This document shows, in pieces, positions 2 to 41,590 of a stretch of DNA of 64,000 nucleotides. The notes under the pieces are model-generated. The model did no database searches. It had not been told where the DNA came from and saw only the letters and a list, made by a program, of their open reading frames with translations. Position 1 is the first letter of the stretch. Every line of letters begins with the position of its first letter. The position numbers and the translations under genes were made by a program. This stretch comes from Candidatus Heimdallarchaeota archaeon. Lineage in GTDB: Archaea; Asgardarchaeota; Heimdallarchaeia; JABLTI01. The stretch spans positions 96,001 through 160,000 of the forward strand of contig JABCTZ010000046.1 in the NCBI GenBank assembly GCA_018238155.1, in the 5' to 3' direction.

Positions 2-937
2 AAAATTTCTCTGAAAGGTTCACTCGTAAGTGAAATAACTCAAGAACTAATTTTTAATACCTTTAAAGAAGTAAACGAAAAACGAGACAAGAGAATAGGT
101 AAATCAAAAATAATCATTGAAACAATATTCCGGTTTTATAGAGATTTACCTAGAATAGATATCACTACTAAACTTGTCAATACAGCAAAGGACCACAGAT
201 TTAGAATTTGTTTTCCGATGCCTTTTGAAACAACAAATACTTTAACATCAACACATTTTGGTTACATAGAAAGGCTTGGAGAAGCGATTGAAAACAAAGA
301 TGTAGTTGAACAACCTTCAGGAATACAACCACAGAAACGATTCATTCGAGTGGAGTCAGAAGAAAAAGATCAAACTGCATTCACACTTATAAACAAAGGA
401 TTGCCAGAAGTTGAATTGATAGGTAAATCGATTTTAGCATTAACTCTTATCCGATCTATCGGATTTCTCTCGAGATCAGATTACCCAGAGAGGCCAATGC
501 ATGCAGGTCCTTATTTAGAAACACCAGGTGCCCAAGAATTAGGACAAGAATACCAATTTAGATACAGCTTCTTATGTCATTCTAAAGAAAAACCAATGAC
601 GTTTAGTATAGATCACTCTGAAGCATTCTGTCTAGAAGGACAAAGCGTTGTTTTCAAAGATAGTAGTCCATTAAGAGATCTAACAAATCCACTAATTGAA
701 ATCGAAAACCAGAATTTAAGATTGTCCTCAATGAGGATTCGAGATGAAAAACTTCAATTGCTAATTTTCAACTTGACTTCAGAGAATATACAATCTGAAA
801 TAAAATTAGACAAGCAGTTCAGCAAATGCACTGATGTAAAAATTGATGGAACAATAAAACAAAGCTTTGTAATTTCAAAGAAGAAGATCATATTAACATT
901 CGAGCCTTTCGAAATTAAATTATTACAAATCAAATAA
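2..937 (+). CDS. Glycoside hydrolase family 38 (alpha-mannosidase-like), C-terminal part; 5' end lies outside the window
   Basis: The frame is open from base 2 (…RIDITTKLVNTAKDHRFRICFP). Motifs NKGLPEVE, LTLIRSIGFLSR and TPGAQELG are typical of the GH38 C-terminal region. Confidence 0.8.
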   Translation, partial: KISLKGSLVSEITQELIFNTFKEVNEKRDKRIGKSKIIIETIFRFYRDLPRIDITTKLVNTAKDHRFRICFPMPFETTNTLTSTHFGYIERLGEAIENKDVVEQPSGIQPQKRFIRVESEEKDQTAFTLINKGLPEVELIGKSILALTLIRSIGFLSRSDYPERPMHAGPYLETPGAQELGQEYQFRYSFLCHSKEKPMTFSIDHSEAFCLEGQSVVFKDSSPLRDLTNPLIEIENQNLRLSSMRIRDEKLQLLIFNLTSENIQSEIKLDKQFSKCTDVKIDGTIKQSFVISKKKIILTFEPFEIKLLQIK

Positions 938-33816: not shown

Positions 33817-34929
33817 ATGACTCCAATAAACGGATCAAAAAAACAAATAGAAATAACAAATGGAAGTGGAGCAATTACATTCGAAAAGAAGTTCCGTTTT
33901 GCATCTATTAAGAGTCCCTTGGAGAATTTCGAAACTGTAGAACAAAAAATAGAATTTAGAAAAGATCCACTACTCAACCATTGATCTAGAATTAATACTC
34001 TTAGAGCAGAACGTATTAAACAAGCTGCAAGTTCAAATGAAAGCTTTCAAACAAATTTAGAAGATTTAATAATGAAATCTGGCCAAGAGTGCTTCTTTTG
34101 TCCTGAAAAAGTTTCAATATCTACTCCAAAATTCCCTGAAAAATTAGGTTTAGGAGATCGTGTTATTGTCGACAATTTCACTTTATTCCCTAATCTATTT
34201 GTTTTCTCTGAATTTCATGCGGTGGGAACATTGGGTGAACAACATTTCACTCAATTAAATGAAATTAATGGAACAACTTGGAAAAATGCTATTTTAGGTT
34301 CGATTAAATATTTTAAAGCAGTTTATAATTCAAACAAACAAGTAAAATATCCATCTTTTAATTTTAATTTTCTACCACCATCAGCATCCTCTATTCTGCA
34401 CCCCCATATTCAAATAATACAAGATATCAAACCAACTAAAATAATTGAAGAATTATTACTGAAATCAGAACAATATTACAAAGAAAATGGTAGCAACTAT
34501 TGGTTGGATCTAATCAATTCTGAAAAGTCGTTGAAAGATCGTTTTATTTCTGAAAATGATTTTATGTGTTGGATTGCAACATATTCTCCATTCGGTAAAA
34601 ATGAATTAACAGGTATAGTGAAATTAAATAAAACTGATTTAACTGAATTCACTGAAAAAGAAGCAGAGCTCTTCGGATTAGAAATTACAAAAGCATTATC
34701 AGCGCTATTTAATGGAAGAAATGCAAGATCAATTAACATGGCCGTTTTCTTAGGTCCTGTTGGAGAAAATCATTCAAATCATTATAAAATTAACGTGAAA
34801 ATTGTAACTAGACCAATATTAGTTCCCAATTATACTGCTGATGTTGGTTTTATGGAATTGCTTCACAATGAACCAATTACTGAAACCTCTCCTGAAGATA
34901 TTGCAAAATCTGTTAAAGAGTTCTTCTAA
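33817..34929 (+). pseudogene. galT: Galactose-1-phosphate uridylyltransferase family gene interrupted by an in-frame TGA at 33982-33984
   Basis: One continuous frame reads …IEFRKDPLLNH*SRINTLRAER…CFFCP…FPNLF…SILHPHIQ. The stop replaces the usual Trp of the RxDPLxxxW motif. Confidence 0.75.
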
Positions 34930-35170
34930 GAGTTCCCAGAAAATAATTGACGGTTTTATTATATTTGCTAGAAAAAAAACCTGATATGAGTGGATATCAC
35001 GAGCATTAAATCCAAAAGTCAAAATCAATTTTTTTCTATCTCCATTTCATTTACTCAAAATGTGGAGAGGTTATTCCCGTCTCTCGATTAAGGGCTTCCC
35101 AGGATGATAGAGAATAAGAGTAAAACAAAGTCTTCTAGCTAAATGAATTAAAAAGACTGTTTATTTTAGA

Positions 35171-35195
35171 AGGGGTGGGAGTGTAGGGGTCACAC
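35171..35195 (+). other. G-rich intergenic motif at the start of a purine-rich tract
   Basis: AGGGGTGGGAGTGTAGGGGTCACAC in an otherwise AT-rich region. Confidence 0.4.
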
Positions 35196-35374
35196 GCCAA
35201 AAAAATAGAAAGAAAAATGGAAACGAATAAGAAAAAGAAAAAAGAGGATAGCTAAAGACTTTTTAATCATAAAAAAAACAATAAACAATCAAAAGAAAGA
35301 AGAAATTCTTATTAAATGAAAAACGTAAAAGATAATAAGATAGACAGCGTAAAAAAAGAAGGAGATAAAAAGAA

Positions 35375-36334
35375 GTGAGTTTCCTAAGAAGATTAATCAG
35401 TGCCGATAAAAAGAAAAGCGGTGAGGATATAAGCTCAAAACAACACGTAGCAATAATAGGACTAGACGCAGCAGGGAAAACAACAATAGTAAAAAGAATA
35501 CTGCGGTCAGAATATACGCTGTCAAAACCAACGTTTGGAGTAAATATCGAAGTTTACAGATATAGAACATTGGAATTCATCGTTTGGGATTTAGGTGGTC
35601 ACGCCCCGATTCGCAAGACTCTTTGGAAGAAGTTTGTTACAAAAGCTCAGACTATTGTTTTTGTTGTTGATGCTTCTGATCAGAAGAGATTTCAGTTAGC
35701 CAAAGATGTTTTCTATGAAACTTTAGAAAACACTGATCCCAAAGCTCCTGTTCTTTTCTTGGCTAATAAATCTGATAAAGAAGATGCTGCCTCTTCTGTT
35801 GAGGTTATGGAAGCTTTAGATCTTCAACAAATGATTCGTCTTGATCGTCCTTTTAACATGTTTCGTTGCTCTGCTCTTACTGGCGAAGGTTTATTTCCCG
35901 CCTGGGATTGGTTAGTTGATATTGGAGCCAAGGATCAAGCTATTCCCACTTGGCATGTCAAAATCTTTTCAGCAGTTGTTTTTGATTCAAATGGTAAAGA
36001 ATTGGATCAATGCATTTTTGGCAATCCTACTCAACAAGCAAATGTTGCCACAGCTTATCGTGAATCTATAAGAGAAACTGAACGCTTTGCTAAACAAATG
36101 CGTGATTATAACGAAGCAGTTACTGTTCTTGAGATAATGAAAAATTATCAACTAGTGATTACTAAGAATAAGCTCTTTGTAATGGGTGTATTAATTGATG
36201 TCAATGACCCCGTTAGTAGAGTTTTAACAATTTCTAGCAGAATTTTCGAAGCAATTGAGATGGAATATCTTAAAGGTTTAAGTATTTCACTTCAAGAAGT
36301 TATCTCTAATTATTTTCCATTAGACTCTATTTAG
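35375..36334 (+). CDS. Arf-family small GTPase fused to a C-terminal longin/roadblock-like domain
   Basis: G1 GLDAAGKT, G2 PTFG, G3 WDLGGH, G4 ANKSD, G5 CSALTGEGL, and a ~120-aa beta-beta-alpha-beta-beta-beta-alpha tail. Confidence 0.9.
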   Translation: MSFLRRLISADKKKSGEDISSKQHVAIIGLDAAGKTTIVKRILRSEYTLSKPTFGVNIEVYRYRTLEFIVWDLGGHAPIRKTLWKKFVTKAQTIVFVVDASDQKRFQLAKDVFYETLENTDPKAPVLFLANKSDKEDAASSVEVMEALDLQQMIRLDRPFNMFRCSALTGEGLFPAWDWLVDIGAKDQAIPTWHVKIFSAVVFDSNGKELDQCIFGNPTQQANVATAYRESIRETERFAKQMRDYNEAVTVLEIMKNYQLVITKNKLFVMGVLIDVNDPVSRVLTISSRIFEAIEMEYLKGLSISLQEVISNYFPLDSI

Positions 36335-36483
36335 AGTCTTTTTTCATTTATCTCTTCTTCAAAATCTTTATTTTGTGTTATTGATAATATATACCGATAA
36401 GCATTTATTTGGTACTACAATTCATCAATATGAGAGCACTTTTTGTTTATTGAAAAATCAAGGATGAGAATGGACGTAGTAAT

Positions 36484-37449
36484 ATGAAGGCATCAAAAAA
36501 AGCGATTGAATCATTTGCAAAATACTTGAGCAAGGATAATCATAAAGTTCCTTGGGTGCTTCTTATTGGTGAGAAAGGTTCTGGAAAAACAACTGCACTT
36601 TATTATCTCCTTTCTTCAAACAGAGACAAAATCTTTCCTGACACAGTCCTTAATTGGATTGATATTTCTTATGGTCAAGAGTGGTTTAAGCTCATCGATA
36701 TTGGAAATGAGATTTTAAACGATGAGAGTGTAATTGATTATTTTCTTTCAATTGCAGATGGCATTGTCTACGTTTTGAATGGAGAATCCGATGAGTCTCT
36801 TAGAAAATCTGTTGAACCCTTCCATGCTATTGTGGAGAAGATACCTTCTAATGTTCCCTTACTAACATTAGTGAACAAAAAAAGCCCTGAAAATAAAGTT
36901 AATCTTAGCCGAGTTTTAAGTTATTTTAATTTAGCTAAAATTTCTTCTCCAACGGACCCTCGTTCCTTTCATTTCGAAATTTGCACTATTTTGACTGGAG
37001 AAGGCATTTATCGTGGATTTGATTGGTTTATTTCAAAACTAATGCACTACGAAGGTTATCATGAGTATGTCACTATCCACCGTGTGTTAATTTATGATGT
37101 TAATGGCTTACTTGACTTTGATGCCCAGTTCTCAAATATCATGGATGATACGCAAGATGCTGTTCTTATAACAGGTTTGCTTTCTGCATTAAATTCAATG
37201 ACCAGGACACTCTTCAAAGATTCAAGTTTCTTGGATGTTGTAACTGTAGGTGATTATTCTATGGTTCTTGTTTCTCGCAATCAAAAGATCTGTTGCCTTT
37301 TTGTTGAACGAGGTGGAGCTATTGGTAAAGCAAAACAAATTGCTGAAATGATATTAGATATTTTCCTCATTGAGGGCGAGGAAGGAAGACTTGCTATTGA
37401 GAACCTTATTGATGAAAGTAAAAATAGTGATGAAACAATATCCGTTTGA
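36484..37449 (+). CDS. Degenerate Arf-like GTPase fused to a C-terminal longin/roadblock-like domain
   Basis: G1 GEKGSGKT, altered G3 (DIGN), altered G4 (NKKS), CTILTGEGI..GFDW, and tail VLIYDVNGL…DAVLITGLLSALNSM. Confidence 0.8.
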   Translation: MKASKKAIESFAKYLSKDNHKVPWVLLIGEKGSGKTTALYYLLSSNRDKIFPDTVLNWIDISYGQEWFKLIDIGNEILNDESVIDYFLSIADGIVYVLNGESDESLRKSVEPFHAIVEKIPSNVPLLTLVNKKSPENKVNLSRVLSYFNLAKISSPTDPRSFHFEICTILTGEGIYRGFDWFISKLMHYEGYHEYVTIHRVLIYDVNGLLDFDAQFSNIMDDTQDAVLITGLLSALNSMTRTLFKDSSFLDVVTVGDYSMVLVSRNQKICCLFVERGGAIGKAKQIAEMILDIFLIEGEEGRLAIENLIDESKNSDETISV

Positions 37450-37542
37450 GGAATTTTTATTAAGGACGAGTTATGTTTTAATTAAACTAGAAAGCAAGAG
37501 AAAGAAGATTAGAAACTAATAATTAATGGAAGAAGATTTGAT

Positions 37543-38346
37543 ATGGTAGGAATTGAATCACAGAAGGAGCATTTACTTGGGATTGTTTTTGTGACATTTG
37601 AAGATACAGGTCCAGCTGTCCCGTATAATGATACTCCACTTACTGATGAACAGACACTCACATTAGCAGTAGAAGGTATGACAATTGTAGGTCTTGATGA
37701 AGGTTCTTCAGGAAAGACTATGGAAGAAAAGAAAAACCAAATGTTTGATACTATGGATGATAAAAAGTCATTTGGTCCTCTCCCAGTTCCGGGCGAACCA
37801 ACTTTTCGAGCAATGGCAATTACCTTTGATGTTGAAGCAGAGGCTTCATCAGACAATAGAATTCAAGAATTCGGAAGAAAATGCATTCTCTTCTTACTCT
37901 TTAAGGAAGACTATACTCGAGAGATTCTTGATGCTTATGGACTTATTAAACCCTATTTCTCAGTAATTGTACGAGATATCACTTCTGAAAAAGATTTAAC
38001 ATTCGCGAACCTCCAAGAGCTTTCAAAGAAAATGGGTATGCTCTTTTCTGGAAAACTTCCACGAATCTTCACCCTCTTAGAAGATGGCTCACCTAAAGAA
38101 TTAATTGGTAAAAAGATACCTGCTGGCGACGTTTTCTTAGTTGCTGATAAAAATAAATGTACTCTTTCCATTCTCTTCTATCACCCTGACCCTACTGTTT
38201 GGCGGAGAAGGCAAATATACAAAAGTGCTTCAGAGCTGAACTCGAGTGTTTTTAGAAATAAACTTAAAGTTATTTCAGTAACTGAAATTGCAGAAATGTC
38301 AAAAATACTTGATAGATTAAATGTTTCAATAGAAAAGATCCACTAA
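37543..38346 (+). CDS. Putative uDENN/longin-like domain fused to a gelsolin-like domain
   Basis: N-terminal GIVFVTFEDTGP…FGPLPVP…F.V……D.R…ILFLLF. C-terminal GDVFLVAD…L.I.F……RRQIYKSASEL. Confidence 0.55.
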   Translation: MVGIESQKEHLLGIVFVTFEDTGPAVPYNDTPLTDEQTLTLAVEGMTIVGLDEGSSGKTMEEKKNQMFDTMDDKKSFGPLPVPGEPTFRAMAITFDVEAEASSDNRIQEFGRKCILFLLFKEDYTREILDAYGLIKPYFSVIVRDITSEKDLTFANLQELSKKMGMLFSGKLPRIFTLLEDGSPKELIGKKIPAGDVFLVADKNKCTLSILFYHPDPTVWRRRQIYKSASELNSSVFRNKLKVISVTEIAEMSKILDRLNVSIEKIH

Positions 38347-38511
38347 GTTTTTTTAGCCGATTTTTTCTTCTCTTTCTCTTTTATTGTTTTTTTACCTAAA
38401 CTTTTTTATTTATGATAAAAATGAAATGCTTGAACGAATAGCTTTATATTTTAATAAATTACATTAAAAAACATTATAATTTAAACTTGGTGGAAATCTG
38501 GTGGAAGATTA

Positions 38512-39033
38512 TTGAGCAAAATAATAGCTAAAGTTGTTTTTGGTGGAGACGGAGGAGTTGGAAAAACAACTCTCATTCAGAGATACCTTACTGGAGAATT
38601 CATTGATACAACGAAGCTAACCATTGGTGTAGGTTTTCATATTCACCAAATGAGCTATCAAGAAAGAGATATTTCACTTTCTGTTTGGGATTGCGGTGGG
38701 CAAGAACAATTCAAACAAATGGGCATTTTCGATAATTACTTTCGAGGAGCACTTGTAGCTATCTTAATGTTTGATTTAACAAGAGCACTTTCTGTTAAAG
38801 GATTAGATACATGGTATGATTTTGTTGATAAAAATTCTAAGACATCCATTATTCTTGTTGGTGGTAAAAGTGATCTTCCAAGAGATCCACTTCTAGATGA
38901 AGATGTAATTGCAGAAACAATAAAACAGTATGAAGCCATTCGTTATGTTGAGACTTCTGCATCAAATGGTTTAGGAGTAAACCTCGTTTTCAATGAAATC
39001 GCTCGTTTATCATTGGATAAAATTCCAAAATAG
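38512..39033 (+). CDS. Rab/Ras-like small GTPase
   Basis: GDGGVGKT, TIGVGF, WDCGGQEQF, YFRGA, GKSD and ETSASNG. Confidence 0.92.
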   Translation: MSKIIAKVVFGGDGGVGKTTLIQRYLTGEFIDTTKLTIGVGFHIHQMSYQERDISLSVWDCGGQEQFKQMGIFDNYFRGALVAILMFDLTRALSVKGLDTWYDFVDKNSKTSIILVGGKSDLPRDPLLDEDVIAETIKQYEAIRYVETSASNGLGVNLVFNEIARLSLDKIPK

Positions 39034-39051
39034 GAACAAAAAACACTCCAT

Positions 39052-39555
39052 CTATAATTCAATTTTCAATAATTCTGATATTCGACGAATTACTTTGGGT
39101 ATTGCAGATTCAACCTCTGAAGATAAGTGTATTCCTAATCCTTCAATATCTTTAACTTGAACACCAATTATTCGTATTTCAGATGGTATATCATATTCTT
39201 GCAAAGAAAAAGCTAATTTTAATGCAGTTATCGCATCGAATCCGTGTGTTGAGCTTAGTCCTTTAATCTCAGGTATATCCTTATTCTTCACACAATATTC
39301 AACAATAGCACCTGGATGTAAATAATCTAAATCTACTGCATCAATAATTATACCCATCGACCATCCATCTAAAGCTAAAATGATATCAATACCTCCAGTT
39401 CCAAGATCTGTAATCTTCACATTAGCGGGGATATTCTTTTTTCTTAATTGCTCAATTATTCGTATTGCAACTCCATCATCAAGGCGTGTTAAATTTCCAA
39501 TGCCAATTATATGGGCATATTTCTCTTTTTGAAGTTTAGAAGATAATTTAGTCAA
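39052..39555 (-). CDS. [NiFe]-hydrogenase maturation protease (HyaD/HybD/HycI family)
   Basis: IGIGN..R.DDG, D.GT.G, IIIDAVD and STH. Confidence 0.9.
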   Translation of the reverse strand: MTKLSSKLQKEKYAHIIGIGNLTRLDDGVAIRIIEQLRKKNIPANVKITDLGTGGIDIILALDGWSMGIIIDAVDLDYLHPGAIVEYCVKNKDIPEIKGLSSTHGFDAITALKLAFSLQEYDIPSEIRIIGVQVKDIEGLGIHLSSEVESAIPKVIRRISELLKIEL

Positions 39556-39600: not shown

Positions 39601-41439
39601 TTAATATTTCAGATTCTTACTATCTTCTTTATAGTAATACATTTTCAGAGAGAAGTTTATTATAACGCTAATGATTTTAATAATTCCAATACCCCAAAAA
39701 CAAGCAATAATAAAGGCAGTGATACCCGCTATCCAACTTGCACCTGCTTCTTGAGATAGAGCCAATAAACCAATACAGACATTATTGCTTACATGAATAA
39801 ATATTGCCGATTCTATACCATATTTTACAAATGCATAGCTTAGAATTAAACCTGCTACTCCTGCTTGAAAGATTTTCCATGCACCCCAGCTTCCTGTCCA
39901 TTTCTCCCAATGTGCAAATCCAAATAAGGTTGATGAAATAATTATTAGTGTCCATTCTGGATAACTAATTTTTTTATATTTACCCCTAATTGCAAGTGGA
40001 ATATCCCATATTTTGATTTTGGCAGGAAAGCTTTTCTCAGTTTTCGTTAATACTTCCATCCGATCATCAGCTATTCGTGATTTAGGTTCTAAATTCTTAT
40101 TTTGTTGCATTAAATATCTGATTAGCATAATGAAGATCATTGGTATTCCAATAATAAATATACGGAAGCTTATTTCCTCTGAAATACCTGCCCAAGCCAA
40201 TAAGAGTACACTAATGAAAGGATTGATAGGTTCTCCTGATGCTGGAGTTCCATTATCTCCGCCGATAAATGGTGATAAAATAAAAATGATAATTACTGAT
40301 AGAACAAAGGAAAGCCCAAGTAGTTCTACAGAACCAACTACTGGATTATTTTTTAGAATATAGAATAAGCTATTTAATTGTCCTTTTCTCTTTTCAAACA
40401 CAGATAATTTAACACCTGATTCTTCAGGAAAATTTTTCTCTTGTTCTAATTCTATATCTATCGATTTTTCACTTGAATGAACATCAGGAGTTACTTCATC
40501 TGAAATTTTTCTCTTCTTTTGAAATTTCTTATATAATCTTATTGATGTTGGTAAAACCATTGATACAACACAAAGTAAAAATACTGTAGTAATAATAGAC
40601 ATCAACGCAACTATTTTGAAATCGACTATTGGTATTTTTATCATAACAAATAGCCAAAATGGTATTGAACCATTAATACGTGTAGAGGGATTATAAAAAA
40701 TCCATGAACCAATACTGAGTACGATTAATACTGCTAAAATAGACGAAAACCCAACGAATAGATATCTCAAAGTATAATAAAACCCTTTCCAAGCATTTCC
40801 TTCAGGTCGATATTTTATTAGCGATATACCTATAATAAATGTACCAATAATCGATGGGATAAATATTGCAATCAAGAACCCATAATAACTGGCTTTACTC
40901 TCGCTTGGTACCACATCATCAACACTCGCTACAATCATAAATAGAATCAAGCTTATAAATCCAGAAAAAATCAAAAGAGCTCCAATAACAGTTCCTATTG
41001 TGTTATATGTTTGATATTTTGATAATCTCTTTTGTTCTTGGAGTTTTTGGAAATTCACAGGAGGTGGTGCTACATAGTATCTTTGTGAATCAACAATCGG
41101 ATGTCCACTCGCAGGCAGAGATATAGAGGTATTACCTGATGTCTGTTGAATTCTTGGGATGTTTTGTTTCAAAACCCCACCACATTTTGAACAAAAGGAA
41201 TTATAAACAGGCATTTCAGCATTACATTGTTGACAAAAAACCTTCTGAACGAAAGGGGCACCACAGCTTTTGCAAAAAAGATTTGATTTAGGGTTTTCCT
41301 CTCCACAACTTGAACAAGTAATTTTTGGTGGTTTATCATTTTCTGTTTGAATCTCATCTTGAGATTTCTCTTGTACCTCTTCTTCCGTGTTCTCGTCCCC
41401 TAAAATTCCTTCATTATTTTGTTCCTTATCATTAGACAC
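39601..41439 (-). CDS. Double zinc-ribbon plus CPBP (Abi/CAAX protease-like) intramembrane protease
   Basis: Four CxxC pairs, EEISFR, FGFAH and HVSNN. Start set at GTG 41439 behind GGGAGT; the ORF is open to 41523. Confidence 0.85.
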   Translation of the reverse strand: MSNDKEQNNEGILGDENTEEEVQEKSQDEIQTENDKPPKITCSSCGEENPKSNLFCKSCGAPFVQKVFCQQCNAEMPVYNSFCSKCGGVLKQNIPRIQQTSGNTSISLPASGHPIVDSQRYYVAPPPVNFQKLQEQKRLSKYQTYNTIGTVIGALLIFSGFISLILFMIVASVDDVVPSESKASYYGFLIAIFIPSIIGTFIIGISLIKYRPEGNAWKGFYYTLRYLFVGFSSILAVLIVLSIGSWIFYNPSTRINGSIPFWLFVMIKIPIVDFKIVALMSIITTVFLLCVVSMVLPTSIRLYKKFQKKRKISDEVTPDVHSSEKSIDIELEQEKNFPEESGVKLSVFEKRKGQLNSLFYILKNNPVVGSVELLGLSFVLSVIIIFILSPFIGGDNGTPASGEPINPFISVLLLAWAGISEEISFRIFIIGIPMIFIMLIRYLMQQNKNLEPKSRIADDRMEVLTKTEKSFPAKIKIWDIPLAIRGKYKKISYPEWTLIIISSTLFGFAHWEKWTGSWGAWKIFQAGVAGLILSYAFVKYGIESAIFIHVSNNVCIGLLALSQEAGASWIAGITAFIIACFWGIGIIKIISVIINFSLKMYYYKEDSKNLKY

Positions 41440-41590
41440 AAATGTACACTCCCAATTTTTGGATAACTCATTATTTAAAGATACAATAATCTCATTGGTA
41501 AACCATATATTAAACCATTTCATTCAAACTAAAATTTAGTAGAAAAAAGTAATATATGACCAACAATTAGCATTTATCAAAAAGATAACA

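Follow-up and report, generated by a model that had tools for sequence, protein, structure and literature searches.

Asgard archaeal genomes carry dozens of eukaryote-like small GTPases and longin or roadblock proteins that are rarely linked in operons, so it is unclear which regulator pairs with which GTPase (PMC10933270). Here we describe a locus of four consecutive genes on the + strand of a 64,000-nt stretch of DNA (the window; contig C7:96001-160000) from a Heimdall-group Asgard metagenome-assembled genome (MAG) of 4.08 Mb in 46 contigs with ~32% GC. Coordinates without a prefix are those of the window, and all features described within the four genes are on the + strand. Gene 1 (A1; 35375-36334, GTG start) encodes 319 amino acids (aa), gene 2 (A2; 36484-37449) 321 aa, gene 3 (X3; 37543-38346) 267 aa and gene 4 (R4; 38512-39033, TTG start) 173 aa, and in the table of open reading frames (ORFs) the spacers between them measure 149, 93 and 165 nt. 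An initial annotation had proposed exactly these four genes, 93-165 nt apart, and its reading of their products, i.e., an Arf-like GTPase with a longin-like tail, a 'pseudo-Arf' with the same tail, a longin protein with a gelsolin-like part and a Rab-like GTPase, is borne out by the matches given below. Genes 1-3 form a conserved unit, for which support is strong. We favour, with a probability of roughly 0.55, the reading that these three genes encode an asymmetric Rag-like dimer and a dedicated longin-type GTPase-activating protein (GAP), with gene 4 as a bystander.

The two Arf-like proteins and their C-terminal tails

The G domain of gene 1 (residues 21-184; 35435-35926) was recognised by Pfam, by an AlphaFold2 model and by fold search. 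The Pfam family Arf (PF00025) matches residues 21-182 with an E-value of 6e-43 (146.8 bits, cut-off 22.3), the closest solved relatives are Arl1 and Arf1 (E ~5e-30), and the VIA fold search returned Arf1 (Z 19.6), Sar1 (Z 18.1) and HodArfR1 (Z 17.3). All five G motifs (G1-G5) are complete and conserved (GLDAAGKT, T53, DLGGH, NKSD and SAL), with a His in place of the usual Gln at the catalytic position, as in Sar1. Judging from these motifs, gene 1 works as a GTP switch of the Arf/Sar type. The model, built on a 33-sequence alignment with a predicted local distance difference test (pLDDT) value of 83.6, places a second domain after the Arf-like G domain. At the N-terminus, a conserved stretch of 14 residues (MSFLRRLI...) is cationic and amphipathic, with a hydrophobic moment of 0.55 over residues 3-13 (11 residues), and may bind membranes; the helix at residues 3-14 is predicted at a pLDDT of only ~45. 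A similar amphipathic pattern, with hydrophobic residues at positions 3, 4, 7 and 8, is found in HodArfR1. The Asgard ArfR/AArf proteins (HodArfR1, GerdArfR1; PDB 8ouk, 8oul, 8oum) also share the Arf G domain (gene 1 against 8oul_A, E 1e-27, Z 17.3). However, ArfR1 is a single-domain protein of ~180 aa with DxxGQ, whereas gene 1 has His for Gln and an extra longin-type domain.

Gene 2 is still recognisably Arf-like (Pfam Arf, E 6e-15, residues 21-185) and is present as a single copy. Across 25 orthologues the P-loop residues G29, G34 and K35 are invariant, as are N131 and K132. The DxxG[Q/H] motif has been lost, reading DIGNE in the window and EA[DGS]EE in Heimdallarchaeaceae (f3), a family that is kin to that of the window at class level only, and the NKxD motif reads NKKS in the window. 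Because the P-loop and the NK pair are kept and DxxG[Q/H] is lost, gene 2 has the look of a protein that binds nucleotide and does not switch, and its motifs make it a pseudo-GTPase candidate that probably binds nucleotide without the usual GTP sensing or hydrolysis. With neither DxxG nor a catalytic Gln or His in gene 2 of either family, the pair does not consist of two active GTPases in the manner of a Rag/Gtr heterodimer. The Pfam scan returned no Gtr1_RagA (PF04670) match at E<=1 for gene 1 or gene 2; some homologues carry weak precomputed matches to that family.

Beyond the Arf domain, genes 1 and 2 each have ~135 additional C-terminal residues, and the two tails are homologous (hhalign probability 92.8%, E 4e-7). 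In the gene 1 tail the AlphaFold2 model gives residues 197-313 (35963-36313; pLDDT 90-97 there) the strand (b) and helix (a) order bb-a-bbb-a-a, which is that of a longin domain, and this part is a candidate dimerisation domain; Pfam hints for it are faint. The corresponding domain of gene 2 (approximately residues 196-300; 37069-37383) gave faint Pfam matches to Intu_longin_1/2 and Robl_LC7 in 3-4 of 14 members, and in hhalign a match (probability 61%, E 8e-5) to a Heimdall protein which itself has a sub-threshold Fuz_longin_1 match. Searching the PDB with profiles of the two tails gave no credible match, and profile comparison detected no similarity between either tail and the longin domain of gene 3. 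Whole-model fold searches of the GTPase fusion (Foldseek PDB, VIA wide and Atlas) were filled by matches to the G domain.

The longin-gelsolin protein encoded by gene 3

No significant match to gene 3 was found in Pfam, NCBIfam or PDB sequences, whether the single sequence, its profile or all 31 family members were searched, and the Atlas feature search returned one unnamed Heimdall cluster alone. The predicted structure (31-sequence alignment, pLDDT 80, predicted template modelling score 0.70) has two domains. Fold matches in VIA and Atlas identify the first (residues 11-171; 37573-38055) as a longin domain. Its best VIA match is the Loki Roadblock-Longin chain 8yqg_B (Z 13.0), and the second is the longin domain of Lst4 (Z 11.5), which we take to be the yeast counterpart of FNIP. 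C9orf72-SMCR8 (7o2w_A, Z 11.1), the FLCN complex (8dhb_J, Z 10.3, and a further match at 9.4) and GATOR1 (9o5a_H, Z 9.5) were also matched, and with 122-140 residues aligned in each case from Lst4 to GATOR1 the predicted fold is closest to the longin GAP class. In Atlas the matches comprised a C9orf72 cluster with a template modelling (TM) score of 0.51, archaeal clusters partly labelled Folliculin or NPR2, NPRL3, and CapG.

Two features mark the GAP-type longins FLCN, NPRL2 and SMCR8, namely a GP motif that precedes strand b2 and an arginine finger close to it, the GP also being present in C9orf72 (PMC12290439). Gene 3 has such a motif in its b1-b2 hairpin, D21-T-G23-P24 (37603-37614), which is invariant in 31 homologues and in which G23-P24 falls between predicted strands 11-20 and 23-29. 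Across 150 cluster representatives of the gene 3 family, the Gly is conserved in 134/135 and the Pro in 133/135. A second conserved element, D104-x-R106...R112 in the b4-b5 loop (37852-37878), supplies a candidate arginine finger in R106 (D104 in 134/138 representatives, R106 in 133/138 and R112 in 104/137). The range of the VIA alignment to 7o2w_A (model 5..171, chain 20..190) sets G38-P39 of C9orf72 on G23-P24 of gene 3, if chain A is assumed to be C9orf72, and that of the alignment to NPRL2 (model 9..173, chain 5..146, the model having 22 inserted residues) sets R106 or R112 near NPRL2 residue 80.

The longin fold leaves room for a role other than that of a GAP, since most regulators of small GTPases with longin and roadblock domains are guanine nucleotide exchange factors (GEFs) or platforms (PMC12290439; PMC3747258). 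One alternative is that gene 3 acts as a GEF or a scaffold for the gene 1-gene 2 pair, as do Ragulator, Mon1-Ccz1, TRAPP and the DENN proteins, and a GEF role has been proposed by Liu et al. for an Asgard roadblock-Rab-DENN module (bioRxiv 10.1101/2020.10.19.343400). The best structural match of gene 3 is, moreover, to a non-catalytic Asgard longin dimer, with Lst4 coming second. However, non-GAP longins lack the GP hairpin (PMC12290439), whereas in the gene 3 family it is 99% conserved and the Arg 96%, and we consider a GEF or platform unlikely.

The second domain of gene 3 (residues 172-267; 38056-38343) is predicted to have a gelsolin-type fold, with VIA matches to adseverin (3fg6_C, Z 9.8, 93 aa, root-mean-square deviation (rmsd) 2.7) and to ProGel of Thorarchaeota (7c2f_B, Z 9.7, 86 aa, rmsd 2.5). 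It resembles the Asgard gelsolins ProGel and 2DGel (PDB 7c2f, 7c2g, 7whg, 7whf; Z 8.1-9.7) in being a single gelsolin-type domain of ~90 aa, and differs from them in being fused to a longin domain and in lacking significant sequence similarity: ProGel is the top match of the PDB profile search at a non-significant E of 0.28, and no Pfam Gelsolin (PF00626) match was obtained in any of the 31 members. The gelsolin-like part is found in only ~1/3 of the representatives of the gene 3 family, while the longin motifs are found in all, and the Arg residues in it are poorly conserved (R174 in 27/69, R223 in 17/47).

This domain raises the alternative that gene 3 is an effector, which would be recruited by the GTP-bound dimer and would act on actin through its gelsolin-like domain, or that this domain supplies the catalytic Arg in the way that Sec23 does on Sar1. 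The arginine finger of Sec23 is located in its gelsolin-like domain, and the DLGGH motif of gene 1 is of the Sar1 type. An action on actin would agree with the fold matches to the actin-binding ProGel and 2DGel and to adseverin and gelsolin (Z 8-9.8), and Foldseek did return Sec23 chains for gene 3 at E ~6e-3. The Sec23 alignments have a TM score of ~0.25 and an rmsd of ~15 Å, however, so that the likeness is at domain level only, and gene 3, with two domains in 267 aa, does not have the five-domain architecture of Sec23 (zinc finger, trunk, b-barrel, helical and gelsolin-like domains). The lack of a Pfam Gelsolin match, the patchy presence of the domain and its poorly conserved Arg, set against longin motifs that are universal in the family, also speak against both versions, which we regard as rather improbable.

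Conservation of genes 1-3 and the position of gene 4

Conservation was surveyed in 400 genomes of the phylum, among which 11 other genomes belong to the family of the window. Relatives of gene 3 are almost confined to the class of the window, and a scan for related loci with a single protein returned none outside the window's family. Within the family, orthologues of all four genes are present in 11/11 genomes with 64-96% identity, and the order 1-2-3-4 is always kept. This order is uninformative because the family keeps its unrelated flanks equally, namely HycI and genes of 121 and 285 aa. Heimdallarchaeaceae also have genes 1-2-3 adjacent to each other, with gaps of 3 and 12 nt and identities of ~38, 30 and 40% to genes 1, 2 and 3, respectively. 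The flanks of this triad are entirely different between two closed Heimdallarchaeaceae genomes and differ again between the two families. Orthologues of gene 2 (E<=1e-20) were found in 10/11 genomes of the window's family and in 29/31 Heimdallarchaeaceae genomes, as compared with 1/40 genomes elsewhere in the class (a weak match, E 1.5e-22), and wherever contigs allow, the gene 2 orthologue lies directly upstream of the gene 3 orthologue. Genomes of the same family are kin, therefore the counts across them are not independent. Only a small number of events can be taken as independent, namely the two families, in which at least three flanking contexts are seen, a single parallel neighbourhood and a single fusion.

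The last two of these events join the gene 3 family to Rag-type GTPases elsewhere. In one genus of family f6, a gene 3 paralogue of ~350 aa lies beside two Gtr1/RagA GTPases (PF04670, E 2e-38 and 2.5e-29) in 7/10 loci fetched. These longin paralogues are 42-52% identical to each other and have the hairpin FxDxGP. At one such locus (L082:4511-7499, in G065:C1; hairpin FQDDGP), the paralogue is tail-to-tail with a 300-aa Gtr1/RagA GTPase, which is in turn head-to-head with the second Gtr1/RagA GTPase; the other loci are L073-L077 and L081. An exhaustive profile search for the gene 3 family in 1.84 billion representatives yielded 267 clusters only, and among these is a 597-aa protein of a Promethearchaeota MAG (P0165; GCA_048939065.1, JBHLPU010000029.1, L083:4001-5794) in which one uninterrupted ORF joins a longin-gelsolin module (hhalign probability 99.4%, 232 columns) to a Gtr1/RagA domain (E 4.6e-34) and a further C-terminal part. 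Taken together, these findings suggest that gene 3 acts on gene 1 itself. The Gtr1/RagA-like genes of the window's own genome (contigs C8 and C17) have no gene 3 paralogue adjacent to them.

These patterns bear on whether the genes are mere neighbours with unrelated roles. In the Asgard archaeon Prometheoarchaeum MK-D1, genes for small GTPases as a rule do not share an operon with those for roadblock or longin proteins (Tran et al., PMC10933270), and with dozens of such paralogues per Asgard genome chance adjacency does occur. However, chance sits poorly with strict co-occurrence and adjacency in two families across flanks that have changed at least twice, with gaps of 3-12 nt in one of these families, and with a parallel linkage and a fusion elsewhere, and we consider this explanation very improbable.

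Phylogenetic trees group the gene 3 orthologues of the two families in a single clade (99/97) that also holds a dispersed paralogue from the family of the window. Gene 1 has the same duplication pattern (95/93), its extra copy carrying Gln and not His, and both genes were therefore duplicated in the same lineage. In the genome of the window (G000) the dispersed paralogue of gene 1 (C15:87203-88150, - strand) has 49% identity and the motif DLGGQ, and that of gene 3 (C16:59870-60670, + strand) has 45% identity. Both duplications took place in the window's lineage once it had separated from Heimdallarchaeaceae, and they did not include gene 2; the two copies may constitute a second GTPase-regulator pair. 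Duplication of the module as a unit in the window's genome was considered and rejected: the paralogues are scattered (gene 1 on C15; gene 3 on C16, C41 and C20; gene 4 on C15, 300 kb) and are without such neighbours.

Gene 4 matches Pfam Ras (E 2.5e-35, 121.9 bits), and its closest solved relatives in the Ras superfamily are the Rabs Rab11, Rab6, Rab7 and Sec4 (E ~2e-23). Its G4 motif is the unusual GKSD in place of the canonical NKxD and is invariant in 8 orthologues. It has no C-terminal Cys, the absence of which is usual in Asgard Rabs (PMC10933270). Throughout the window's family gene 4 is the next gene after gene 3 wherever the contig extends far enough, with 79-96% identity and the first 35 residues 100% conserved. 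In five Heimdallarchaeaceae genomes, no gene 4 was found beside the triad and no clear orthologue elsewhere; these genomes have 13-17 Ras-like genes each, of which the best match to gene 4 has 33-39% identity and none is near the triad.

The region 34930-39100 contains T runs of at least 6 solely just 3' of gene ends (35029, 36339 and 38348-38407), despite the 32% GC, and none of the four coding sequences contains one. One run follows the upstream 285-aa gene. Another, a T6 run at 36339-36344, 5 nt past the stop of gene 1, resembles an archaeal terminator and is possibly leaky. The remaining four, of 6-7 T each, fall within a 60-nt stretch past the stop of gene 3 (38348-38407), in the AT-rich 165-nt spacer before gene 4, where transcription likely ends. 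The oligo-T runs fit a separate transcription unit for gene 4.

These data allow the functional model of the initial annotation to be weighed, an Arf-to-Rab relay in which the Rab-like gene 4 is under the control of gene 3 and the two fusions. It has in its favour that eukaryotic longin and DENN proteins do regulate Rabs, and that gene 4 is under strong constraint and stays behind gene 3 wherever this can be seen in the window's family. However, this adjacency is limited to that one family, in which unrelated flanks are equally syntenic; Heimdallarchaeaceae have the triad without gene 4; the oligo-T runs and the AT-rich spacer separate genes 3 and 4; and elsewhere the gene 3 family is linked to Rag-type and not Rab-type GTPases. 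Gene order is kept in a second family for genes 1-3 and not for gene 4. The relay is not supported by these data, ranks last among the functional models and appears improbable, and gene 4 is best read as a lineage-specific neighbour and a bystander to the module of genes 1-3.

A putative Rag-like module and its relation to known systems

In the asymmetric dimer with a dedicated GAP that we prefer, genes 1 and 2 would pair via their homologous C-terminal longin-type domains in an arrangement built like Rag/Gtr. Gene 1 would be the switch and gene 3 its GAP, the FLCN/NPRL2/SMCR8-like longin of gene 3 bringing the GP hairpin and Arg106 up to the gene 1 nucleotide pocket, and the gelsolin-like domain would serve as an adaptor, either to actin or to the dimer. 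A complex prediction for full-length genes 1, 2 and 3, each with its own alignment, had a score of 0.23 where the mark was 0.32, and speaks neither for nor against binding.

Several points weigh against this reading. We infer the binding among genes 1, 2 and 3 and the effect of gene 3 on GTP hydrolysis only from the genes and their predicted folds. The longin or roadblock nature of the tails is suggested by a predicted topology, faint Pfam matches and one middling hhalign match, and the equivalence of R106 to the fingers of FLCN (R164) and NPRL2 (R78) is likewise a tentative one, drawn from alignment ranges and not from a residue-level superposition. Eukaryotic longin GAPs are heterodimers of two longin-DENN proteins, whereas gene 3 has a gelsolin-like domain at its C-terminus in place of DENN, and no second longin subunit was found among the ORFs of the locus. 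The P0165 fusion is a single record, and its hairpin reads GT instead of GP. Distant gene 3 homologues in four other families (f4, f6, f7 and f33) have no GTPase neighbour within 5 kb. Lastly, given the gaps of 149 and 93 nt and the T6 run after gene 1, co-transcription of genes 1-3 in the genome of the window is not certain.

The closest parallel among characterised systems is provided by the Rag/Gtr GTPases and their longin GAPs, i.e., RagA/B-RagC/D with GATOR1 (Nprl2-Nprl3) and FLCN-FNIP, and Gtr1-Gtr2 with SEACIT and Lst4-Lst7. The likeness consists in a paralogous GTPase pair with C-terminal domains that, in genes 1 and 2, are putative members of the roadblock/longin superfamily and in a longin (gene 3) that matches FLCN, NPRL2 and Lst4 (Z 9.4-11.5) and has the GP hairpin and a conserved Arg. 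There are also clear differences, in that the G domains of genes 1 and 2 are Arf/Sar-like by sequence and gene 2 is degenerate while both Rags are active. Furthermore, gene 3 is a single 267-aa regulator with a gelsolin-like domain and not DENN, with no second longin subunit nearby and no TOR pathway context. It is only tentatively, and with more doubt than confidence, that we would call the operon a surviving archaeal counterpart of the Rag-GATOR1/FLCN switch, with a probably membrane-associated dimer of one active and one locked subunit, a single-chain GAP that would turn off the active subunit by the GP-hairpin and arginine-finger chemistry of eukaryotic FLCN, NPRL2 and SMCR8, and a gelsolin-like tie to Asgard actin.

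Within Asgard archaea, MK-D1 has 26 GTPase-roadblock/longin fusions, and one operonic pair was predicted by AlphaFold2 to form a Gtr1/Gtr2-like heterodimer (Tran et al. 2024, PMC10933270). That pair resembles genes 1 and 2 in consisting of tandem Arf-annotated GTPases, described as Rag-like, with C-terminal roadblock/longin domains, which are putative in the case of genes 1 and 2. It differs in that no linked longin regulator was described for it, whereas the locus studied here has a conserved third gene and a degenerate GTPase. The operon reported by Liu et al. is a different one (LAMTOR1-like, Rab-like and DENN), and its GTPase is not Rag-type (bioRxiv 10.1101/2020.10.19.343400). Both the GP and the arginine finger are present in a class of Heimdall longins whose partner GTPases were left open (Traffic 2025, PMC12290439). 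These FLCN/SMCR8-type longins, and the NPRL2-like longins of Liu et al., share with gene 3 the GP before b2, the conserved Arg and a fold like that of FLCN, SMCR8 and NPRL2, and the PAS-longin-GAF fusions among the latter also occur in the gene 3 sequence family. However, neither a gelsolin-like C-terminal domain nor linkage to a GTPase pair is mentioned for the longins of the two papers. A full-text search of a limited literature collection returned no paper on the longin-gelsolin fusion or its linkage to a GTPase pair. GTPase-roadblock/longin fusions and Heimdall GP longins have thus already been published, and the novelty lies in the conservation of the triad, in the degenerate GTPase partner and in the longin-gelsolin architecture.

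The conserved operon, the linkage to Gtr1/RagA and the natural fusion nominate a specific trio of small soluble proteins as a GP longin with its candidate partner GTPases. If gene 3 is an arginine-finger GAP, the catalytic principle of FLCN, GATOR1 and C9orf72-SMCR8 would predate eukaryotes.

Relatives of the individual genes also occur in other settings. Longins of the gene 3 type are found flanked by PAS and GAF domains, and also C-terminal to long TPR arrays (P0236, P0252, P0259, P0265, P0266, P0247 and P0268), which suggests recruitment into prokaryote-style sensory proteins. One of the gene 3 homologues in family f4 that lack a GTPase neighbour has next to it, on its downstream side, a 197-aa protein (L039:5051-5644) whose match to the first longin of Fuz/Mon1/HPS1 is sub-threshold (E 1.2e-4), and the two may be a longin-longin pair. 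Distant homologues of gene 1 in Hodarchaeales (L064:3838-5909 and L066:5001-8560) also occur in tandem, as two or three Arf/Gtr1-like GTPases of 300-490 aa, in which both copies are active (DLGGQ) and to which no gene 3 relative is adjacent; a 394-aa neighbour of a gene 1 homologue in Hodarchaeota is unrelated to gene 3.

Upstream of the four genes lies the 285-aa gene (34072-34929, + strand), which has no Pfam match and whose synteny is confined to the window's own family. It contains the sequence HPHIQII, recalling the HxHxQ motif of HIT/GalT-type nucleotidyl transferases. Downstream, on the - strand, follow a HycI-type hydrogenase maturation protease (39052-39555; Pfam E 2.6e-19) and a 640-aa protein (39601-41523) with N-terminal zinc-ribbon-like Cys pairs and many membrane helices.

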